Of a stretch of 64,000 nucleotides of DNA, positions 4,620 through 34,397 are shown piece by piece. The notes beneath the pieces are model-generated. The model did not search any database, was not told the origin of the DNA, and saw only the letters and a program-made list of their open reading frames with translations. This DNA comes from Eledone cirrhosa. Taxonomy: Eukaryota. The translations under genes and the position numbers were made by a program. How positions within the stretch are numbered: position 1 is the stretch's first letter; the number at the start of each line of letters is the position of its first letter. The stretch spans positions 56,358,001-56,422,000 of the forward strand of contig OZ024748.1 in the NCBI GenBank assembly GCA_964016885.1, read 5' to 3'.

Positions 4620-5400
4620 CTGGTGGCGTTGGTGTTGGTGTTGGTGTTGGTGTTGGTGTTGGTGTAAAGGGGCTGTGATGCTGATGTTGGTGTCGTAGGT
4701 GAGGGTGGTGTCCATGTTGTCGGTGTGTCACTGAGTCGGTGACATAGGTATTCGTGGTGTTGGCGGCTGTGGTTGTCATATTCGTGGAGGCGACGGCTCT
4801 GATTGTGATATCCATGGTAGTGGTGGTAGCTTCGATTATAATATTCGTGGCTATGGCGGTGGCTGTGATGGTGACGGTGGTAGTGATGGTGGTGGTGGTG
4901 TTGGTGGTAGTGGCTGTGATATTCATGGTGCTGGCGATGGATGTGAATATCATATTATTAGTAGTGATGGTGGTGGTAGACTTGGTGGGGATGGCTGTGA
5001 TTATCATATTTCTGGTTCTGGCGGTGGCTGCGATTGTCATATACGTGATGGAGTTGGTGGAAACGGGGATGATTCTTCCGGCTGCAGTGGTTTTGTTTGT
5101 GGTAGGTGAGATAGCGAGGGTAGTTACTGGCTCGAGACGATGGTGGTAGTGAAATTCTGCTGCCGGGTATAGTAAGTAGCGTGTAGTGCTGATGATGGCG
5201 GTGGGGATGACAGTAGTGCTTTGTTGAGGAAGGTGCTGTAGGGAGTGGTAGTAATAATGGTGGTGAAGGCGGTAGTGTATGTTTTGATGAGTGAGGAAGA
5301 GAGTGGTAGTACTGATGGTGATGACAGTGGTAGTGGTTTGTGTCGGTGTGTGGTAGTATGACTGCTGCTGCTGTTTCTGTTGCTACTGGCTATAATAGTG
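4620..5400. repeat. Degenerate (GGT/GTG/GAT)n low-complexity tract
   Basis: (GGTGTT)n and GGT/GTA triplet-rich sequence; source of the Thr- and Val-rich ORFs. Confidence 0.8.
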
Positions 5401-5418
5401 GTGTTATGTTTTAGTACT

Positions 5419-5606
5419 GCGGTGGATTGGCAGTATCGGTAGAGGGTCAGACGCCATGCTTTCCAGCATAGTTACGTCCCTTTACGATCTGAGTTCAAAT
5501 AGGTCCGAGGTTGACTTTTCCTTTCATCCTTACGGCGTGGATAAAATAAAGTACCAGTAATGCACTGGATAACTGCTGGCCTTGTGCCTAAAGTAGAAAC
5601 AGTTAT
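5419..5606 (+). mobile_element. SINE family A copy with TSD
   Basis: Full-length unit; direct repeat GTTATGTTTTAG at 5403-5414 and 5602-5613. Confidence 0.9.
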
Positions 5607-5851
5607 GTTTTAGGGTGTATTGCTTCTTGTGGTGGTGGATATTGCTATATAATAGAAGTTATGGTGTACGTAGCGTAAGTATAATGTAGTGTATAGCTGA
5701 GGTGAGATATATTATATCGTAGAGAGGTAAGACAATGTATGTTTCTAAGAAGGAGCGTAAAAACAACTTGGTATCAGAGAGAAAGATATATAGAAAGAGA
5801 GACATTTATGAATACTCTCTCTCCCTCTCTCTCTCTCACTCACTCACTCAC

Positions 5852-5916
<65 letters not shown>

Positions 5917-5992
5917 TAATATATATATATAATGGATAATCCTAAGCATTTCTTGCATAACCTAATATATATATATATATATACATGTATAT

Positions 5993-6038
<46 letters not shown>

Positions 6039-6130
6039 CCTAATATATATATTGTTATACTTTGGGAGGGTCATATACATGTATATATATATATATAACC
6101 TAATATATATATATATATATACATGTATAT

Positions 6131-6176
<46 letters not shown>

Positions 6177-6629
6177 GGGAACAAGTAAGACCCCGACGGC
6201 TGAGCTCAAGCCGTTTCGACGGCTAATTCTAATATACACATATATACTTTCCTACCTAGGGAGATGCATACATAAAGATATACAGATAGATATATCAAGA
6301 GATCGGCTGACAGCATTCCAACCTAGGGCTACGTTAATGTGATGTAGGAGATAGATTTAGGGACAACAACTTCAGAATATTGAAATTAATGCTGGAGGAG
6401 CGGGAGAGATACGTGAAGATAGAAGAGAGGCAAACTATAGAGGAGAAAACTAACATAAGTCAATTTTTTTCATGCTGTGTAGAAGAATCAGGCAAAAGAT
6501 ACAACAATTATTTTTCATAGATGTTTATGAAGGAGATGATGATGAAATTGGCGTGGTGGGTTGAGGTTATAATGATGAAGACAATAATGATGATGATGAT
6601 AGTGTTGATGGTGAACATTATAATAATGT

Positions 6630-6848
6630 TGGTTTCTGATTTATGTATATGGCAAACAATTTTAGGAGAGGGGTAGGCGTCAGTAGACTAAATGATACCA
6701 TTACATTACTGGTACTTTATTTTACCGACCCCACAAAAATGAAAGGCAAAACGAAACTCGACACAATTTGAACTCAGATCGTAAAGGCCCATAACTCTAT
6801 GCTGAAAAGCATGGCGTCAGACCCTCTACCGGTACTGCCAATCCACCA
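6630..6848 (-). mobile_element. SINE family A copy (longer 3' variant)
   Basis: Same head and core, with an extra purine-rich segment near the 3' end as in the 38521 copy. Confidence 0.85.
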
Positions 6849-6865
6849 CTCTAATGAAGATAATA

Positions 6866-7052
6866 ATAATTGTTTCTACTTTTGGCACAAGACCAGCAAT
6901 TACCCCAGTGTATTACAGGTACTTTATTTTATAGACCGCGTAAGGATGAAAGGCAAAGTTAACCTCGGCGGGATTTGAACTCAGACCATAAAGGGCCGTA
7001 ACTCTATGCTGCAAAGCATGCGCCCGACCCACTACCGATACTGCTAATCCAC
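6866..7052 (-). mobile_element. SINE family A copy (tandem with the previous one)
   Basis: Full-length unit directly adjacent, same orientation. Confidence 0.9.
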
Positions 7053-7453
7053 ATGATGATAATGTTGATGATGATGATGATGTTGGTGTCCATAGCAACG
7101 GAGATAATGACAAAGAAGATGTTGATGTTGTCATAGATGGTGATCCCGGTGACGTCCAGGATGATGATGATGATGCTTGTGATTTTGTTTTGAGAGGTAA
7201 TGACATTGGCAGTAAGGGTGATGAGGCCGATGATGACGGAGATGACGCCAGTCATTCTGGTTATAACGGTGAAGTTTATGAGGATAATGCTAAGAATATT
7301 GACGATGGGGACGTTGTTAATGAATTTGGAGATGGCAGCAATTGTGGTTACGATGACACCGTGACACCGACAGGGAATTTAATGGTGGGGATATTGATGT
7401 TTGAAATCATATTTGTGATGAGAAATTGAAGGAACACCATGAAGTTGTACTTA

Positions 7454-7588
7454 GTGAAGGCGCATGGCTTAGTGGTTAGAGCATTGGGTTTGCAATAGAA
7501 TGGTTGTGAGTTCAATTCTCGGACCGAGTGATGTGTTGTTTCCTTGAGCAAGACACGTTGCTCCAGTTTACTCAGCTCTAGAAATGAG
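7454..7588 (+). mobile_element. tRNA-derived SINE, family B
   Basis: A box TGGCTTAGTGG and B box GAGTTCAATTC, followed by TCCTTGAGCAAGACAC (a central-domain motif common in metazoan SINEs). A decayed relative may lie at ~23930-24000. Confidence 0.75.
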
Positions 7589-8296
7589 ATGATAGGACTG
7601 GGATCCCTATCATTAAAACATCCTAGAAACCCCCAATGAGATACAACATTTCAGTAACGGATAATTAAATTCAGTTAGAATTCATATTTTGACACAGCAG
7701 GTACAAATTACCGCCATAGCCAAAATGAATTCGTAATTTTTATAAGCACCTCACTATAAAGTCACATTGCAGTGAATTAATATCTACATAGTTCTGATCT
7801 GTTACTGGGGCGTGGGTTCTGTGTTTTTATACCTTCTATAAATAAATCTAGAAATCATATGCCTTTACGCATTGTACAATACGAGTCACATTTCTATGTG
7901 GTGACTCCCTGAATCAACGACTTTATGAAAACTGCTCTCATTAGGCTGAAAGACATTCCAGTGGGATTTTCCTAGCATTGCATTATATTTGGAATTTCGC
8001 CAGCTGGTAATATTTTGTAGACAGTGTGTGTCCCTGTATTCCATCTTCCCCGAGGGTCCGGGTAAATATTTCAATCATATCTTATTTTGTTCGACCCGTT
8101 TAGCTTTTTCGCTTTTTTTGGCTATGGTGGTTAATGGCTTCTTAACCATGGTCTCAGCGTGTATGACCATTTTAACTTATGTTTATAGATCTGGTATCAT
8201 CTTCTTCATATCCATGGAGCGCTTGTCTGCACAATATGGAAGTTGTGTTTGGCTAATTTCTACCCGCCGAAATGCGATTATCGCTAAATTTATATT

Positions 8297-8344
<48 letters not shown>

Positions 8345-9321
8345 TATATTACAATATATACACACATCCATGCGCCCACACATTACATACCTTCATATAT
8401 ATATATATATATATGAAGGTATGTAATGTGTGGGCGCATGTGTGTGTGTGTATATTGTAAATACTAATTGGAACCACTCCTAAATCTGGAAGTGATCAAG
8501 GGTTTTATTAATTCTCCATTTAGGTAGATTGGAATAATTTATATATATATATTCTTTGACTTTGAACAATTAATAAGCAGCGAATCTTATTTATCACCCT
8601 TATTAAAAATCCAATATTACTCGTAATAAAGCATATTGGCATAAGAAATAATTGAAATGAGGGAGTGATTAAAACTCTGTTTTGTTAATCTACAGTCGTC
8701 ATTTGATAATTCATTAATGTCAAAGGCAATTATGGTAACTAGCAGAAAAACCACCCTTCGTGTGGTTTTTCTGCTAGCATGTGTTGTGCGCATATTGTTA
8801 TTATACGCAAACATATATGCATGTAGATATGATACATCAAATAAAATCGTTATTGACAATATATAGAGTCCATTATCATAACCGGAAGTATTGACAATCT
8901 TAAAATAAGCAATCATTATATATAAGAATATTTATGTTTAATCAAGACCTACGAAATTTAGTACATAAATTAGGTAATATTCATTCATTATTTATTCATA
9001 GTAATCCAACTTATCTTACTAACGGGATTAAGAAATATATTCAGGACACAATCCCGCACTCATCCATATAAATTGTGATTGTAATATCTCAATATTATAT
9101 TATGTTTGTAATATCTCAAAATCAAGGTTACATAATTTCAAACGTGAACAGTACATCATTACATGTTGACATTGTTCATGAAACATTTGAATTCAACAAT
9201 GGTAATATTCCGGGAACAAAACTAACTCCATTATAATTTTCTCCGGTAATTGAAAGTGTAATGGACAAGGTTTTGCAGGGTAATATTTGCGGTGAAAAAA
9301 TAACGTATAAACATTAGATTG

Positions 9322-12907: not shown

Positions 12908-13073
12908 ACGGAGGAAATGTGGTAAGGAACCAGGTGGACTATAACGCACCGAAGTACTCAATACTTAGGGTAATAGAGTGGGTAATAGGAACGAGTAGGA
13001 TCCCAACGGCTGAGCTTAGTCCAGAATTAGCCGTCGAAACGGCTTGAGCTCAGCCGTCGGGGTCCTACTCGTT

Positions 13074-13075
<2 letters not shown>
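12908..13075. mobile_element. (TA)n-embedded hairpin element, 'ACGGAGG' family copy 1
   Basis: Near-identical to 25275-25479 and to the reverse complement of 46089-46280; both ends abut (TA)n. Confidence 0.85.
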
Positions 13076-13110
<35 letters not shown>

Positions 13111-13334: not shown

Positions 13335-13481
13335 CTGCATGTGCGTGTATATGTGTGTATGTATCAATAAATACATATATATAAAAGTGTATACACGTAT
13401 CAAACACACATATATATATATATATATATATAAAATAAAGTTAAATAAAAGTCAAATGATTAAAATTTAGCTTCGTTTATT

Positions 13482-13536
13482 ACTGCTATATATATTTCAG
13501 TGACAGCCATCTTTGGCTGTGACCTCTTCAGGCAGT
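13482..13536 (-). ncRNA. Minimal type I hammerhead ribozyme motif (left arm)
   Basis: Exact reverse complement of 13752-13806. Confidence 0.75.
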
Positions 13537-13751
13537 TTGAATTAGTATGGTATAGACAAGTACATATGTTGTTTAGGTGTATGATATTGTCAATACTCTG
13601 ATATGCCCAGTTCCTTGCTGGGTTGTTAATTCACTGGGGAACTGGAGTTCCCAGTGAATTAACAACCCAGCAAGGAACTGGGCATATCAGAGTATTGACA
13701 ATATCATACACCTAAACAACATATGTACTTGTCTATACCATACTAATTCAA

Positions 13752-13806
13752 ACTGCCTGAAGAGGTCACAGCCAAAGATGGCTGTCACTGAAATATATAT
13801 AGCAGT
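13752..13806 (+). ncRNA. Minimal type I hammerhead ribozyme motif (right arm)
   Basis: ACTGC CTGAAGA GGTCACAGCCA-AAGA-TGGCTGTCACT GAAA TATATA TA/ GCAGT. Confidence 0.75.
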
Positions 13807-13952
13807 AATAAACGAAGCTAAATTTTAATCATTTGACTTTTATTTAACTTTATTTTACATTACTCCGGAGTAACCAAACCAACCTGCGCACTTCGTCGAG
13901 TACTCCAGCCTGCATACTGAGGTGTTGGTATACAACCAACATAAACTCAAAA

Positions 13953-14018
<66 letters not shown>

Positions 14019-14021
<3 letters not shown>

Positions 14022-14350
14022 CGTTTTCTGAATTTGTTTAGCAAGGTTCTTTATCTGAAAACGTGTGTTGAAACCAATATTGTTATACTTTGGGAGGGTC
14101 ATGTTGCCAAGAAGGAACACATGCACCAGTGCTTTCACTCCAATTTATTATAAATGATATTTATAAATTTAAGAATTTTTAAATTTCCGGTTGGTTGTTT
14201 CCACAACCGGACGATTGTTCATATATTGTCAAAGTTCTTTCGTCACACATTATGTGACCTCTTCAGTGACTGGGGATTATTTTCTTTGTTTTTGTGCCTC
14301 TCCTTTGTTCTTTCCTACGCCATCTTGTTTTTGTGTGACACTTTGTGGCG
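14019..14350 (-). mobile_element. Hammerhead-bearing element, same family as 30783-31360
   Basis: Colinear with 30783-31100, starting from the same TTTCGTTT terminus at a (TA)n junction. Its right boundary is uncertain. Fragments (ACTTTGGGAGGGTCAT) at ~6050-6075 and ~31531-31547. Confidence 0.8.
14228..14270 (-). ncRNA. Minimal type I hammerhead motif
   Basis: Minus strand reads GTCA CTGAAGA G GTCACA-TAATG-TGTGAC GAAA GAAC TT/ TGAC. Confidence 0.7.
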
Positions 14351-15237: not shown

Positions 15238-15977
15238 AAAACAGGCAAAACGACCAGTGTATGGAATCTATAGATTCCATACACTGGTGGTTTTCCCTGT
15301 TTTACTGATGACACACTATCTCTCTCTAGTGTGTTACCTTTTCAACATATTGTATTTTAAAGAGCTCAGGATTCCTTTCCGTTTGAGCACATTATTGACA
15401 GGGAATAACGAGATTCTATGGCTCCGTTAATTTATCGTGATATTTCGCTCCTTATAACTGTCTTTCCTCTCTCCCTGTTTGGTTGAGCACACTTCTTTGA
15501 GTGGTTTTGGGTCTGCCCTTTCTCGCAGCTCGTCCCTGAGATACCACTGGTTCACTGCTCTAAGCAGGCTGTGACATCTCTCTGCCGTGTGTAGCTGGAC
15601 GGTGGCTTTAGATTCTCTTAGTGTTATCTAGAATGTATAGTCTAGCACGTGCTGATGACTCATAGGCTATCCCATTTCAGTCGACAACTTCCTGGCGAAA
15701 CAGATCTCTTTGGATTTGTACGCGTGTTTATATAGTTATAGAGGTGCGTATATACATTTTAATTTATATTTTGAATTATTGTGTGTCTACCCCGCCTTCC
15801 AAAGATTATAGATTCCATACACTGGTGGTTTTCCCTGTTTTATTGATGGCACACTATCTCTGTCTAGTGTTACCTTTTCAACATATTGTATTTTAAAGAG
15901 CTCAGGATACCTTTTCGGTTGAACACATTATTGACAGAGAATAACGAGATTCTATGGCTCCGTTAATTTATCGTGGT
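15238..15977. mobile_element. Non-coding element with ~170-bp direct terminal repeats (15269-15439, 15807-15975) and a short 5' inversion
   Basis: Two highly similar TATAGATTCCATACACTGG...AATTTATCGTG repeats. A ~33-bp inverted arm is centred at 15270/15271. TA runs lie on both sides. Confidence 0.8.
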
Positions 15978-23275: not shown

Positions 23276-25032
23276 TGCTGTTACGCTTTTATAAAGAGTT
23301 ATGTAGCTACATCGTTTTATCTTGTATTTCATGGATGTCTGTTTAGATATTCACATACAACATCATTCATTGTTTCACAAATACATGATGGGCTCAACAT
23401 ATGTTATCTATTATTGTCGTAATAGAGTACAGATTCATTTCTATATATCTTGCTGTGGTACCATGCTCTTGGGAGAAGATGATGAGATTTTTACCTAACA
23501 CAGCCTGATTTTTTCTGTTAAATAAAACGTGTAGATGTTATTTTATCACACCTGTTACAGTGCACATTGATATATATATATATTAAGTGGTGATGTAATT
23601 GTGAGCAACGCACACTGAACAAGGGGAGATAATTTCCGGAAATTTAGAATTTAATTCCTAAAATTTATTCATATGTTTATACAAAATACGACTTTTAGAA
23701 ACAGGCAACTAAATGCTAACAGACACACACACACATACTCACGCATTTACTCATCCATTGAATAAGACATTTTACTAAAAAACACCATGTTGTAGTCAAA
23801 TTAGCAATACATTTATACAGGAAAAATGATTTCATGAAGAGTTTACCAAATTGTAATTTGCGTAATTAAAAAAAAAAATGATATTTTGAGGGAAGTAACA
23901 TAACTTTAAGTAGGTTGATGGATGTAGTACACTTGCGTTGAATCTCTGAACAGACCTGAATGCTTTGTGTTTGAGTAAAACAGTTCATTTCACGTTGCTT
24001 TTCTTAGAACTGGAATTCTATGGTTGAAATACAAGGGAAATCTCCGATAAGATGCAATCTCACAGGAAGTCAACTAACCCTGCATGCAAGTTTGCTGTGA
24101 AATTCATTTCATTTTTCTAGCTCCAAAATCCTAGTATTTATGATTTTCAGCTAAGAGACTACATTCCAGCTCTTCACGCATAACCATTTGAGTAACAACT
24201 GACTACATACCAATTACTTGCTACGAAACAAAATTGCGTTACGCTGAAATTCTGACACATTAAATTCACTTGCCTCGACGTATCACAACTTATGTCTTTC
24301 GAGAGGGACTATCACTTTTTTTTATCTCAAACTTAACATACCGTACATAGGTGCCGATTACAACTAGCCCACCTTTTATATTTTACGCGTCACTTATTCT
24401 GCGTTTTACCCTTTTATCTCTAAGGGTATAAATGATCATCTTCGTCACTCATATTTAAATTTAAAGTTGGAACGCCACGTAAGTTCAACTTCGCCTTAGT
24501 GTTGTAAAATTCTCCAGAATACTGTTTAACAATCTGAATGGACTAGAATTACTATTGGTAATGGTTGAAAGTGTGTACATTAATTTCCAACAACTTTTGA
24601 ACTTGACGTTTTCGTATCTCTTGCCATATATATATATACTCTTTGTCCAAGTGAGTTTGTTTCCTGATGAGTTCGAAGCTCGAGAATTTATCGTTGATAG
24701 GATATTTCCGAAAACGAACAAAACCCTAAGGGTAGAAACGTAATCCTGGTATGTGTATATGCATTTTTTCTTCTAACTTTAATTTTATAGCTAATTGTGT
24801 ATGGTTGACGGTATATTTAATCGATGTCCACGTGCTATTGAAATGTTGGGTAAATATTCTATAGCGGTTGATCGCGAATAGATTGCTGTCGTTTATTTAT
24901 CTACTATTTCTTCATATGTGCCTTTTAATCTTATAGCCTGGTTTAATTGTTTTTTTGAGTGGTTGATTATGCTAATTGGGAGAGGAAATGGTGTATATAT
25001 ATTATCAAATGATTCTATGGACATACTTTATA

Positions 25033-30670: not shown

Positions 30671-30767
<97 letters not shown>

Positions 30768-30998
30768 GTATATATATATATATTTCGTTTCTGAATTTGT
30801 TTAGCAAGATTCTTTATCTGAAATCGTGTGTTGAAACCGATATTGTTATACTTTGGGAGGGTCATGTTGCCAATAAGAAACACACGCACCAGTTGCTTTC
30901 ACTTCAATTTAATTTAATATATATTTTTAAATTTACAAATTTATAAATTTCTGGTTGGTTGGTTGGTTCCACAACCAGATAGTTGTTTATATATATAT

Positions 30999-31043
30999 AG
31001 TCATAGTTCTTTCGTCACACACTCTGTGACCTCTTCAGTGACT
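30999..31043 (-). ncRNA. Minimal type I hammerhead motif (left arm)
   Basis: Reverse complement of 31153-31197. Confidence 0.75.
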
Positions 31044-31152
31044 GGGGATTTCTTTCTTCGTTTCTGTGCCTTTCCTTTCTTCTATCCTACGCCAAACAAA
31101 ATGGCGTAGGATAGAAGAAAGGAAAGGCACAGAAACGAAGAAAGAAATCCCC

Positions 31153-31197
31153 AGTCACTGAAGAGGTCACAGAGTGTGTGACGAAAGAACTATGACT
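31153..31197 (+). ncRNA. Minimal type I hammerhead motif (right arm)
   Basis: AGTCA CTGAAGA G GTCACA-GAGTG-TGTGAC GAAA GAAC TA/ TGACT. Confidence 0.75.
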
Positions 31198-31356
31198 ATA
31201 TATATATAAACAACTATCTGGTTGTGGAACCAACCAACCAACCAACCAGAAATTTATAAATTTGTAAATTTATAAATATATATTAAATTAAATTGAAGTG
31301 AAAGCAACTGGTGCGTGTGTTTCTTATTGGCAACATGACCCTCCCAAAGTATAACA

Positions 31357-31392
<36 letters not shown>

Positions 31393-31399
31393 GTATATA

Positions 31400-31511
<112 letters not shown>

Positions 31512-31859
31512 TGTGTATATATATATATATACTTGGGGAGGGTCATATTTGTGTAATATTGCCAAAATTAATAACAGAACACACTCACTGTTTGGTTGGT
31601 TTTCGGTTCTGTGTCTTTTATATCGGTTATTTTAATTTATTCGGTCCTCAATGTTGCCAACGGTCAACAATACAGATACAATATATATATATATATATTC
31701 ATTTTATTTAGACTAAGTAGTAAGTTTTGTTACTCTGGAGTATTGCCTGCTTAGCACAGTTTCATCAGTCACCATGATAAGCAGGTAGCTTTAATAAAAT
31801 AAATATCTAAACTATATTTCGGAATTGGGTACTCTCTTTCCTCACGCATCAAGTACATA

Positions 31860-34000: not shown

Positions 34001-34126
34001 ATACCTCAATTGCTTACAAAGGCCGTGTTTATTTGAGCCACGAATATCCTGGAGACAATTATACGTAGTCACACAGTAACACACACAAGCTCATTCACAC
34101 ACACACACGTACACACATACACACAG

Positions 34127-34167
<41 letters not shown>

Positions 34168-34205
34168 ACAACAACACCTGCTCACATATGTGCAGGTGTT
34201 TGTTG

Positions 34206-34267
<62 letters not shown>

Positions 34268-34397
34268 ATGTGTGTGTATGTGTGTATGTGTGTGTGTGTG
34301 TGCATGAGCTTGTGTGTGTTACTGTGTGACTACGTATAATTGTCTCCAGGATATTCGTGTCTCAAATAAACACGGCCTTTGTAAGCAATTGAGGTAT
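34001..34397. repeat. ~400-bp fold-back palindrome containing mirrored microsatellites
   Basis: ATACCTCAATTGC...GCTCAT is mirrored by ATGAGC...GCAATTGAGGTAT; then (CA)n/(TG)n, (TA)n/(TA)n and a central hairpin ATAACAACAACACCTGC...GCAGGTGTTTGTTGTTAT. Confidence 0.9.

Follow-up and report, generated by a model that had tools for sequence, protein, structure and literature searches.

A hairpin in a (TA)n array of Eledone cirrhosa is a solo head-to-head pLTR pair of a Penelope-like element, with both arms probably copied from one sense RNA

Penelope-like elements (PLEs) of the EN+ Neptune/Nematis type carry a single ORF in which reverse transcriptase (RT) is followed by a GIY-YIG domain, with a CX2-5CxxC linker and a CCHH motif, and they form pLTR tandems; an inverted 5'-truncated copy, a tail at one end, a hammerhead in the pLTR and a microsatellite target complete the description (PMC8557442), and the hairpin family described here resembles them in all of these respects. 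Their tail is 30-40 nt long, whereas it is 57 nt here, and the ORF found here has 1,317 aa with an N/H/T-rich insert. Penelope palindromes of A. vaga likewise have head-to-head pLTRs, a tail on one arm, target-site duplications of 8-10 bp and N-rich ORF inserts; antisense self-priming was favoured for them and left open, whereas the present family points to a sense template (Arkhipova et al. 2013, PMC3846280). As in our family, metazoan PLE hammerheads have a short helix I, a 6-bp helix II with a bulged 5' base and a minimal helix III, and dual hammerheads 100-700 bp apart on opposite strands have been noted among them (Cervera and de la Pena 2014, PMC4209133). In vitro, Poseidon_Ac (PAc) cuts both strands and extends them from two internal sites (Frangieh et al. 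2024, PMC11167929). There too, two RT start sites bound the tail inside the ORF start, targets are AT-rich and hammerhead cleavage is unneeded; inverted products, the cap and single-molecule origin, which we treat here, are not known to be addressed in that work (PMC11167929). Earlier publications already describe inverted pLTRs, the tail, the preference for (TA)n and hammerheads paired on opposite strands (PMC8557442, PMC3846280, PMC4209133), and this hairpin family or a close relative may already be in the supplementary files of PMC8557442. How the inverted pLTR and tail are constructed, and from which template strand, was left open (PMC3846280, PMC8557442).

We find that the hairpin near the middle of a window of 64,000 nucleotides from Eledone cirrhosa (GCA_964016885.1, contig OZ024748.1, positions 56,358,001 to 56,422,000) consists of two pLTRs of a young Neptune/Nematis-type PLE, standing alone and joined head to head, and is not an independent ribozyme element (Table 1). 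Its arms, 30840-31094 and 31102-31360, are reverse complements except for a substitution at 30927 and an additional GGTT unit. A further 57 bases (30783-30839) belong to the left arm, so that a tail-bearing arm of 312 nt and a tail-less arm of 259 nt, each with a minimal hammerhead motif, enclose a loop of 7 nt, with (TA)n flanking both arms; compared with 100 shuffles the fold has z = -61. An earlier, sequence-only reading had described this geometry, with one long arm, ribozyme 3' ends pointing outward, TA on both sides and the GGTT and SNP difference between arms, and had taken that difference to exclude a read artefact; we agree on both counts. It had also set the hairpin apart from the element at 13.4 kb, and the two indeed show no alignment beyond 15 nt of ribozyme core. 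Among the sequencing runs listed as containing the sequence none was of RNA. Contigs from 4 sequencing runs over 30960-31240 contain family pieces and a few joints, and none spans the stretch; the best run may be the source sample, and we give these contigs no weight. Among the best 150 of 371 Rfam matches in the window only chance miRNA-shaped ones were seen. Elsewhere in the window, 6049-6074 is a 26-bp stub identical to the tail-less end of the hairpin family, and 8350-8459 and 34063-34334 are TA-centred hairpins that appear miRNA-like in Rfam below the gathering cut-off.

Table 1. Coordinates of the window hairpin, its parts and the related copy
Feature	Position	Strand	Remark
(TA)n target array, left	30674..30782	.	
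Tail-bearing pLTR arm, 312 nt	30783..31094	- (sense on minus)	99-100% identity to young copies
57-nt "tail" between two recurrent arm ends	30783..30839	-	both ends in AATATCG words of parent
Parent ORF, first 27 codons, ATG at 30865	30783..30865	-	matches 1,317-aa ORF start in L193
Minimal type I hammerhead motif	30999..31043	-	predicted cut 31004/31003
Head-to-head joint, parent-templated AACAAAA	31095..31101	+	without extra G in window copy
AAAATGGCG, YY1-like word at inferred transcription start	31098..31106	+	inferred function; older subfamily: CAAGATGGCG
Tail-less pLTR arm, 255 nt plus one extra CCAA unit	31102..31360	+	
Hammerhead motif, second copy	31153..31197	+	
(TA)n target array, right	31361..31531	.	
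Single tail-bearing pLTR, older subfamily	14019..14337	-	ends about 15 nt upstream of fold point

A search for a parent with RT and GIY-YIG domains had been suggested, and such a parent was found by starting from copies matched by the sequence at 14019; these copies continue into an open frame that encodes YVDD, a linker of the form CX4CxxC and a GIY-YIG domain. An intact, uninterrupted ORF of 1,317 aa lies at 4656-8606 of locus L193 (C1:63.07 Mb), where the tandem has a period of 4,423 bp. Its ATG is at position 230 of the pLTR, so the ORF begins within the pLTR, and the "tail" is ORF sequence between two AATATCG words. Pieces of it match RVT_1 (E 1e-4, below the curated cut-off) and GIY-YIG (E 2e-5, above the cut-off); a domain scan of the whole protein gave no match, and a PDB sequence search gave just a weak I-TevI-type match (E 0.26). 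The best named relative is an RT-domain protein of Octopus vulgaris (68%). Ahead of the RT lies a repetitive insert, rich in N, H and T and about 250 aa long, which recalls the Asn-rich inserts of A. vaga Penelope (PMC3846280).

The single ORF with RT and C-terminal GIY-YIG, its start within the pLTR, the pLTR tandems, the inverted 5'-truncated copy, the one-sided tail and the minimal hammerhead motif in the pLTR are together those of EN+ PLEs. Read from the translation against PMC8557442, the linker before the EN is CIDKKCITC and a CCHH motif (C-TEGQ-C...EH...H) is present; by the definitions given there, both motifs appear to fit Neptune/Nematis, not Hydra. Members of the Hydra clade have a CxCX5C linker, no CCHH and a length below 3 kb, whereas the parent has CX4CxxC, CCHH and a 4.4-kb unit; its DKS and RW words resemble the Hydra DKT and RWK, by motif words alone. 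Assignment to Naiad/Chlamys, with N-terminal EN and no canonical hammerhead, is set aside by the C-terminal EN of the parent. Non-LTR retrozymes are, like the window hairpin, non-coding and PLE-derived and carry a type I hammerhead, yet they are head-to-tail tandems of hammerhead units, whereas the window hairpin is an inverted pair, one motif per strand, rebuilt at each insertion (10.64898/2026.07.22.740005).

The copy at 14019 is 86% identical to the window hairpin arm. It had been described as a non-inverted sister that shares the terminus and continues past the fold point; the terminus is indeed the same, whereas past the fold point it follows the family for just about 15 nt. Query positions 1-319 form the longest match in 29 other loci. 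This copy belongs to an older subfamily and the window hairpin to a younger one, whose members are 99-100% identical (40 scored of 193 candidates) and whose 29-nt marker has 3,708 exact matches in the 3.0-Gb genome.

The hammerhead cores CTGAAGA...GAAA lie at 31038-31010 (minus strand) and 31158-31186 (plus strand), with their 3' ends outward. Each consists of CTGAAGA, G, helix II and GAAA and is predicted to fold with a stem I of 5 bp, a stem II of 6 bp and a bulged G; taken alone this fold is weak (z = -1.7; 12 of 200 shuffles equally good). An Rfam hammerhead search returned no match up to E 10, and none is expected for minimal motifs such as those of PMC4209133. Loop III of the window motif is not palindromic (GAAC), unlike the motifs described there (PMC4209133). 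The sequence-only reading of a twin-hammerhead fold-back holds in that two motifs are present; it fails in calling them a twin ribozyme, since they sit on opposite strands and are hence a by-product of the inverted pLTR. In a read-through RNA both hammerheads are predicted to be buried within one long stem.

The helix II loop does change between copies as reported, from GAGTG in the window hairpin to TAATG in the 14019 copy, whereas the selection on helix II read from this change is not significant. Between the consensus of 63 older arms and that of 121 young arms, fixed differences number 3 of 45 in the ribozyme and 24 of 184 in the non-coding flank (Fisher p = 0.31), and 1 of 83 coding positions differs. 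The three ribozyme differences are in loop II, at the cut-site base and at the end of stem I, none being in the core or helix II, and no compensatory pair was found in the ribozyme among the same arms. In old copies loop II varies by 5.1%, against 2.4-2.9% in the 5' side of stem I and in stem II, mostly through one lineage variant. The pattern is compatible with constraint without demonstrating it. Few arms begin where the ribozyme is predicted to cut (2 of 7 matches to a pattern that misses joints preceded by A or with another TA length, against 216 arms led by G), and folding guided by the ribozyme was rejected on this count. The hammerhead would be a passenger, seldom cut in the RNA that gets copied. 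Other CTGANGA...GAAA cores, some with plausible stems, occur in the window at 1111-1081, 2776-2753, 15652-15700, 24664-24713, 40859-40813 and 63903-63863.

A question remains: how is such a pair made? We find that 244 joints match the fold pattern exactly, within 12 nt of the window fold point (control 0). The inversion, claimed as specific to this copy, is so as regards the joint, which is remade at each insertion, but not as regards its position, which is common to these 244 copies. Neighbouring pairs among the first 100 of the 3,708 arms, all on C1, are head-to-head in 24 cases, tandem in 4 and tail-to-tail in 1; 11 of the 24 lie within 53 bp and the others up to 6.8 kb apart. Tight folds number 76 among 83 loci, comprising 45 from the first 50 listed joints and 31 from 38 best-match loci. 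One arm ends at 310-312 and the other at 253-255 in 69 of these 76, and the preference for (TA)n that had been noted is borne out, 69 of 76 flanks on one side and 65 of 76 on the other being (TA)n. Target duplications of 9-13 bp were found at 8 of 9 informative sites, 5 of them not TA-like (shuffled mean 0.55, maximum 3). At each end of the element, 1-3 bases (AT, T) are common to element and target, whereas initiation by Poseidon_Ac is described as non-homologous to its target (PMC11167929). Several families collect in (TA)n arrays: the window segment 31528-31690, in the same array as the hairpin, is the end of a related family (sharing TACTTGGGAGGGTCAT) that is also found next to L085, and 12909-13078 is a TA-embedded, partly palindromic repeat that recurs beside the hairpin family in L007, L020, L022 and L031.

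Near-identical 570-bp copies in TA at many loci are what a non-autonomous twin-ribozyme palindrome, MITE-like or retrozyme-like, would leave if it were copied as a unit. Among 72 copies with two full arms, however, both arms carry the substitution in 91 events (33 sites; 20 private to a single locus). Another 69 events affect one arm; three copies that align poorly account for 28 of these, and just 4 are seen again, each of them twice. The 45 joints derived from the pattern have 27 loop types, with no match to lineage. Variable loops together with private variants shared by both arms indicate that the palindrome is rebuilt at each insertion. Loops vary within lineages, one-arm variants are not inherited, the arms consist of the pLTR and ORF start of an autonomous element, and tandem ribozyme units are absent, so that copying as a unit is the least credible of the explanations we weighed.

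We consider it probable that the pair was made in one insertion event, both arms being copied by overlapping twin priming from one and the same sense RNA, with a predicted cap. The first line of evidence is an extra G. All 64 arms that retain upstream sequence have the parent context C-AAAA-TGGCG, yet G-A4/5-TGGCG, with a G that the parent lacks, begins 216 arms (51 with T, as a control). This G occurs in parent context in 2 of 47 arms (40 loci); otherwise the arm begins with it and it directly adjoins either the opposite arm or flanking sequence, a few TTTT-G-AAAA joints being ambiguous. Ten joints have the form C-n-G, with the G on both arms and n of 0-5, and A-run length agrees between arms in 9 of these 10 (p 0.011; by hand count, 45 of 100 listed arms are A5). 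An untemplated 5' G is read as a copied cap in L1 and SVA, and LINE-1 likewise has a YY1 site near its start (PMC4859970); the YY1 consensus CAAGATGGCGGC is active just downstream of human transcription starts (PMC13017510). The word beside our extra G matches CAAGATGGCGGC. By analogy, we read the extra G as a copied cap and the fold point as a predicted Pol II capped start. The window copy has no extra G and extends 4 nt beyond its position, retaining the parent AACAAAA. The same joint recurs in 10 of 76 tight folds, which suggests that other starts or longer RNAs contribute, and a clear cap letter is absent in 26 of 45 joints.

The second line of evidence is RNA editing. A search for arms starting at the predicted ribozyme cut surfaced a head-to-head pair on C22 (L286/L287, C22:15913783-15918542) with 107 sense-strand A>G changes, every one of them on both arms, and 4 T>C; its arms end at 255 and 312 and show 0 differences in 1,009 positions. 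ADAR prefers A's with fewer G on the 5' side and more on the 3' side. Edited A's of this pair have fewer 5' G (12/107 vs 48/269) and more 3' G (29 vs 34). A second pair, on C1 (L323, C1:2081500-2091499), has a different pattern (111 differences from the C22 pair in 1,026), with 33 of 34 A>G common to both arms. Its long arm spans the whole ORF to a tail-less pLTR read as unedited (6 A>G), and 31 edits are common to the upstream pLTR and its inverted copy only. These two are the only edited pairs found, both with one 35-nt pattern. Matches to a degenerate pattern carried further A>G in 6 of 25, whereas the mirror T>C pattern gave further T>C in 0 of 14; no T>C hyper-edited pair was found with it, and T>C never exceeded 7 in 467 alignments. 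A lone arm, L307, carries 21 A>G. In both the C22 and C1 pairs the edits destroy the hammerhead core, and on C22 also the YY1-like word. Since the same A-to-G marks are on both arms, both arms were likely copied from one sense RNA. A general ADAR bias in ordinary shared variants is unsupported (A>G vs T>C 14 vs 3 in tight folds, p 0.13), and none of the 11 private shared variants in 12 long pairs is A>G. In the parts of the literature covered, we found no statement of cap-limited twin cDNAs or both-arm editing in Penelope elements.

The editing bears on three other origins of the pair. Two RNA molecules in a dimeric RNP, giving one arm each, would suit the predicted dimer of PAc (PMC11167929), the very unequal arm lengths that occur (L088) and the several long pairs whose arms are no closer to each other than to other loci; of the 12 long pairs, 3 have arms that diverge less from each other than from the nearest other locus, 3 about as much and 6 more, a result due in part to alignment noise in repetitive spacer. 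That each arm has its own RNA is nevertheless very unlikely, given editing that is molecule-specific, common to both arms and different between the C22 and C1 loci, lineage markers that are concordant across arms, and the agreeing A-runs. An antisense RNA template with self-priming, the published interpretation for A. vaga Penelope palindromes (PMC3846280), is more doubtful still: the 107 A>G against 4 T>C are on the sense strand, the T>C control gave none, and it is the 5' end of the sense strand that has the extra G. Palindromes tend to be unstable, and assembling them is difficult (PMC8557442); on that ground one could suspect that the arms became identical only later, either in the DNA, through palindrome formation or conversion following insertion, or in the consensus of the assembly. 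Against this, the tail/no-tail asymmetry is fixed, unique flanks differ, targets are duplicated, one-arm variants persist, in the window copy included, an old 526-bp palindrome (L006) is just 94% symmetric, and in the edited pair on C1 the arms differ in length and the centre is asymmetric; homogenisation is accordingly as improbable as two RNAs.

One sense RNA with a single primer would also be used by snap-back, in which one cDNA primed at 312 reaches the RNA 5' end and copies itself, the endonuclease resolving the second arm at 255. This accounts for the identity of the arms and for the two edited pairs as well as two primers do, perfect AT-centred joints do occur (L136, the C22 pair), and Craig et al. 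attribute the tail to EN-mediated resolution (PMC8557442). Yet in the 45 joints the tail-less arm alone reaches further 5' in 15, the tailed arm alone in 13 and both in 16, and for those 15 snap-back needs an extra one-sided central deletion. Such a deletion is again needed where a tail-less arm led by G directly meets a tailed arm truncated at 9 to 296, and C-n-G joints with n = 0-1 give no self-priming loop. Snap-back is thus unlikely; symmetry of the 5' reach, G-led tail-less arms abutting shortened tailed arms and loopless C-n-G joints favour two cDNAs. The joints of L204 and L208 contain short fillers, repeated and copied from the ends of the arms, as if priming and release had occurred several times while joining.

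Overlapping twin priming, as we propose it, would begin with Pol II initiating at A4/A5-TGGCG within the pLTR. The GIY-YIG domain would cut both (TA)n strands about 10-13 nt apart, and the two target 3' ends would pair through 1-3 nt with the AAUAUCG sites 255 and 312 nt from the cap. Each would then prime a cDNA, the second displacing the first; no RNase H is known to take part. With priming at the 5'-most pLTR, both cDNAs would run off the cap, often adding C, and their 3' ends would be joined with variable trimming, microhomology or filler. In twin priming of LINE-1, two target ends prime on one RNA. The L1 cDNAs cover different parts of the RNA, whereas those proposed for the hairpin family would overlap, duplicating the same part.

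The family at 13.4 kb (window 13430-13857; L251-L280) is very young, with at least 43 exact 206-nt matches, and has the tail/no-tail asymmetry. Folding at G-AGTT, with 0 matches, was rejected for it; many of its 5' ends cluster at ATATGACT, and some of these carry an additional C on the antisense side. In 11 loci that were checked, no ORF reached 200 aa.

Neither the element nor its shape is unusual among PLEs, and the value of the family is the mechanistic record left by young copies in high number. Whether PLEs at large integrate by overlapping twin priming, ADAR-edited insertions being single-molecule barcodes that prove it, and whether head-to-head copies feed dsRNA to ADAR, whose action then ruins both the ribozyme and the promoter word in new copies, we hold to be evenly balanced. 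Given a cap-like G, two fixed ends and the same editing on both arms, the question can be put to the test with the in vitro system that already exists, and an intact ORF is available. Hairpins of 570 bp in TA risk mis-annotation as MITEs, miRNA precursors or twin ribozymes.
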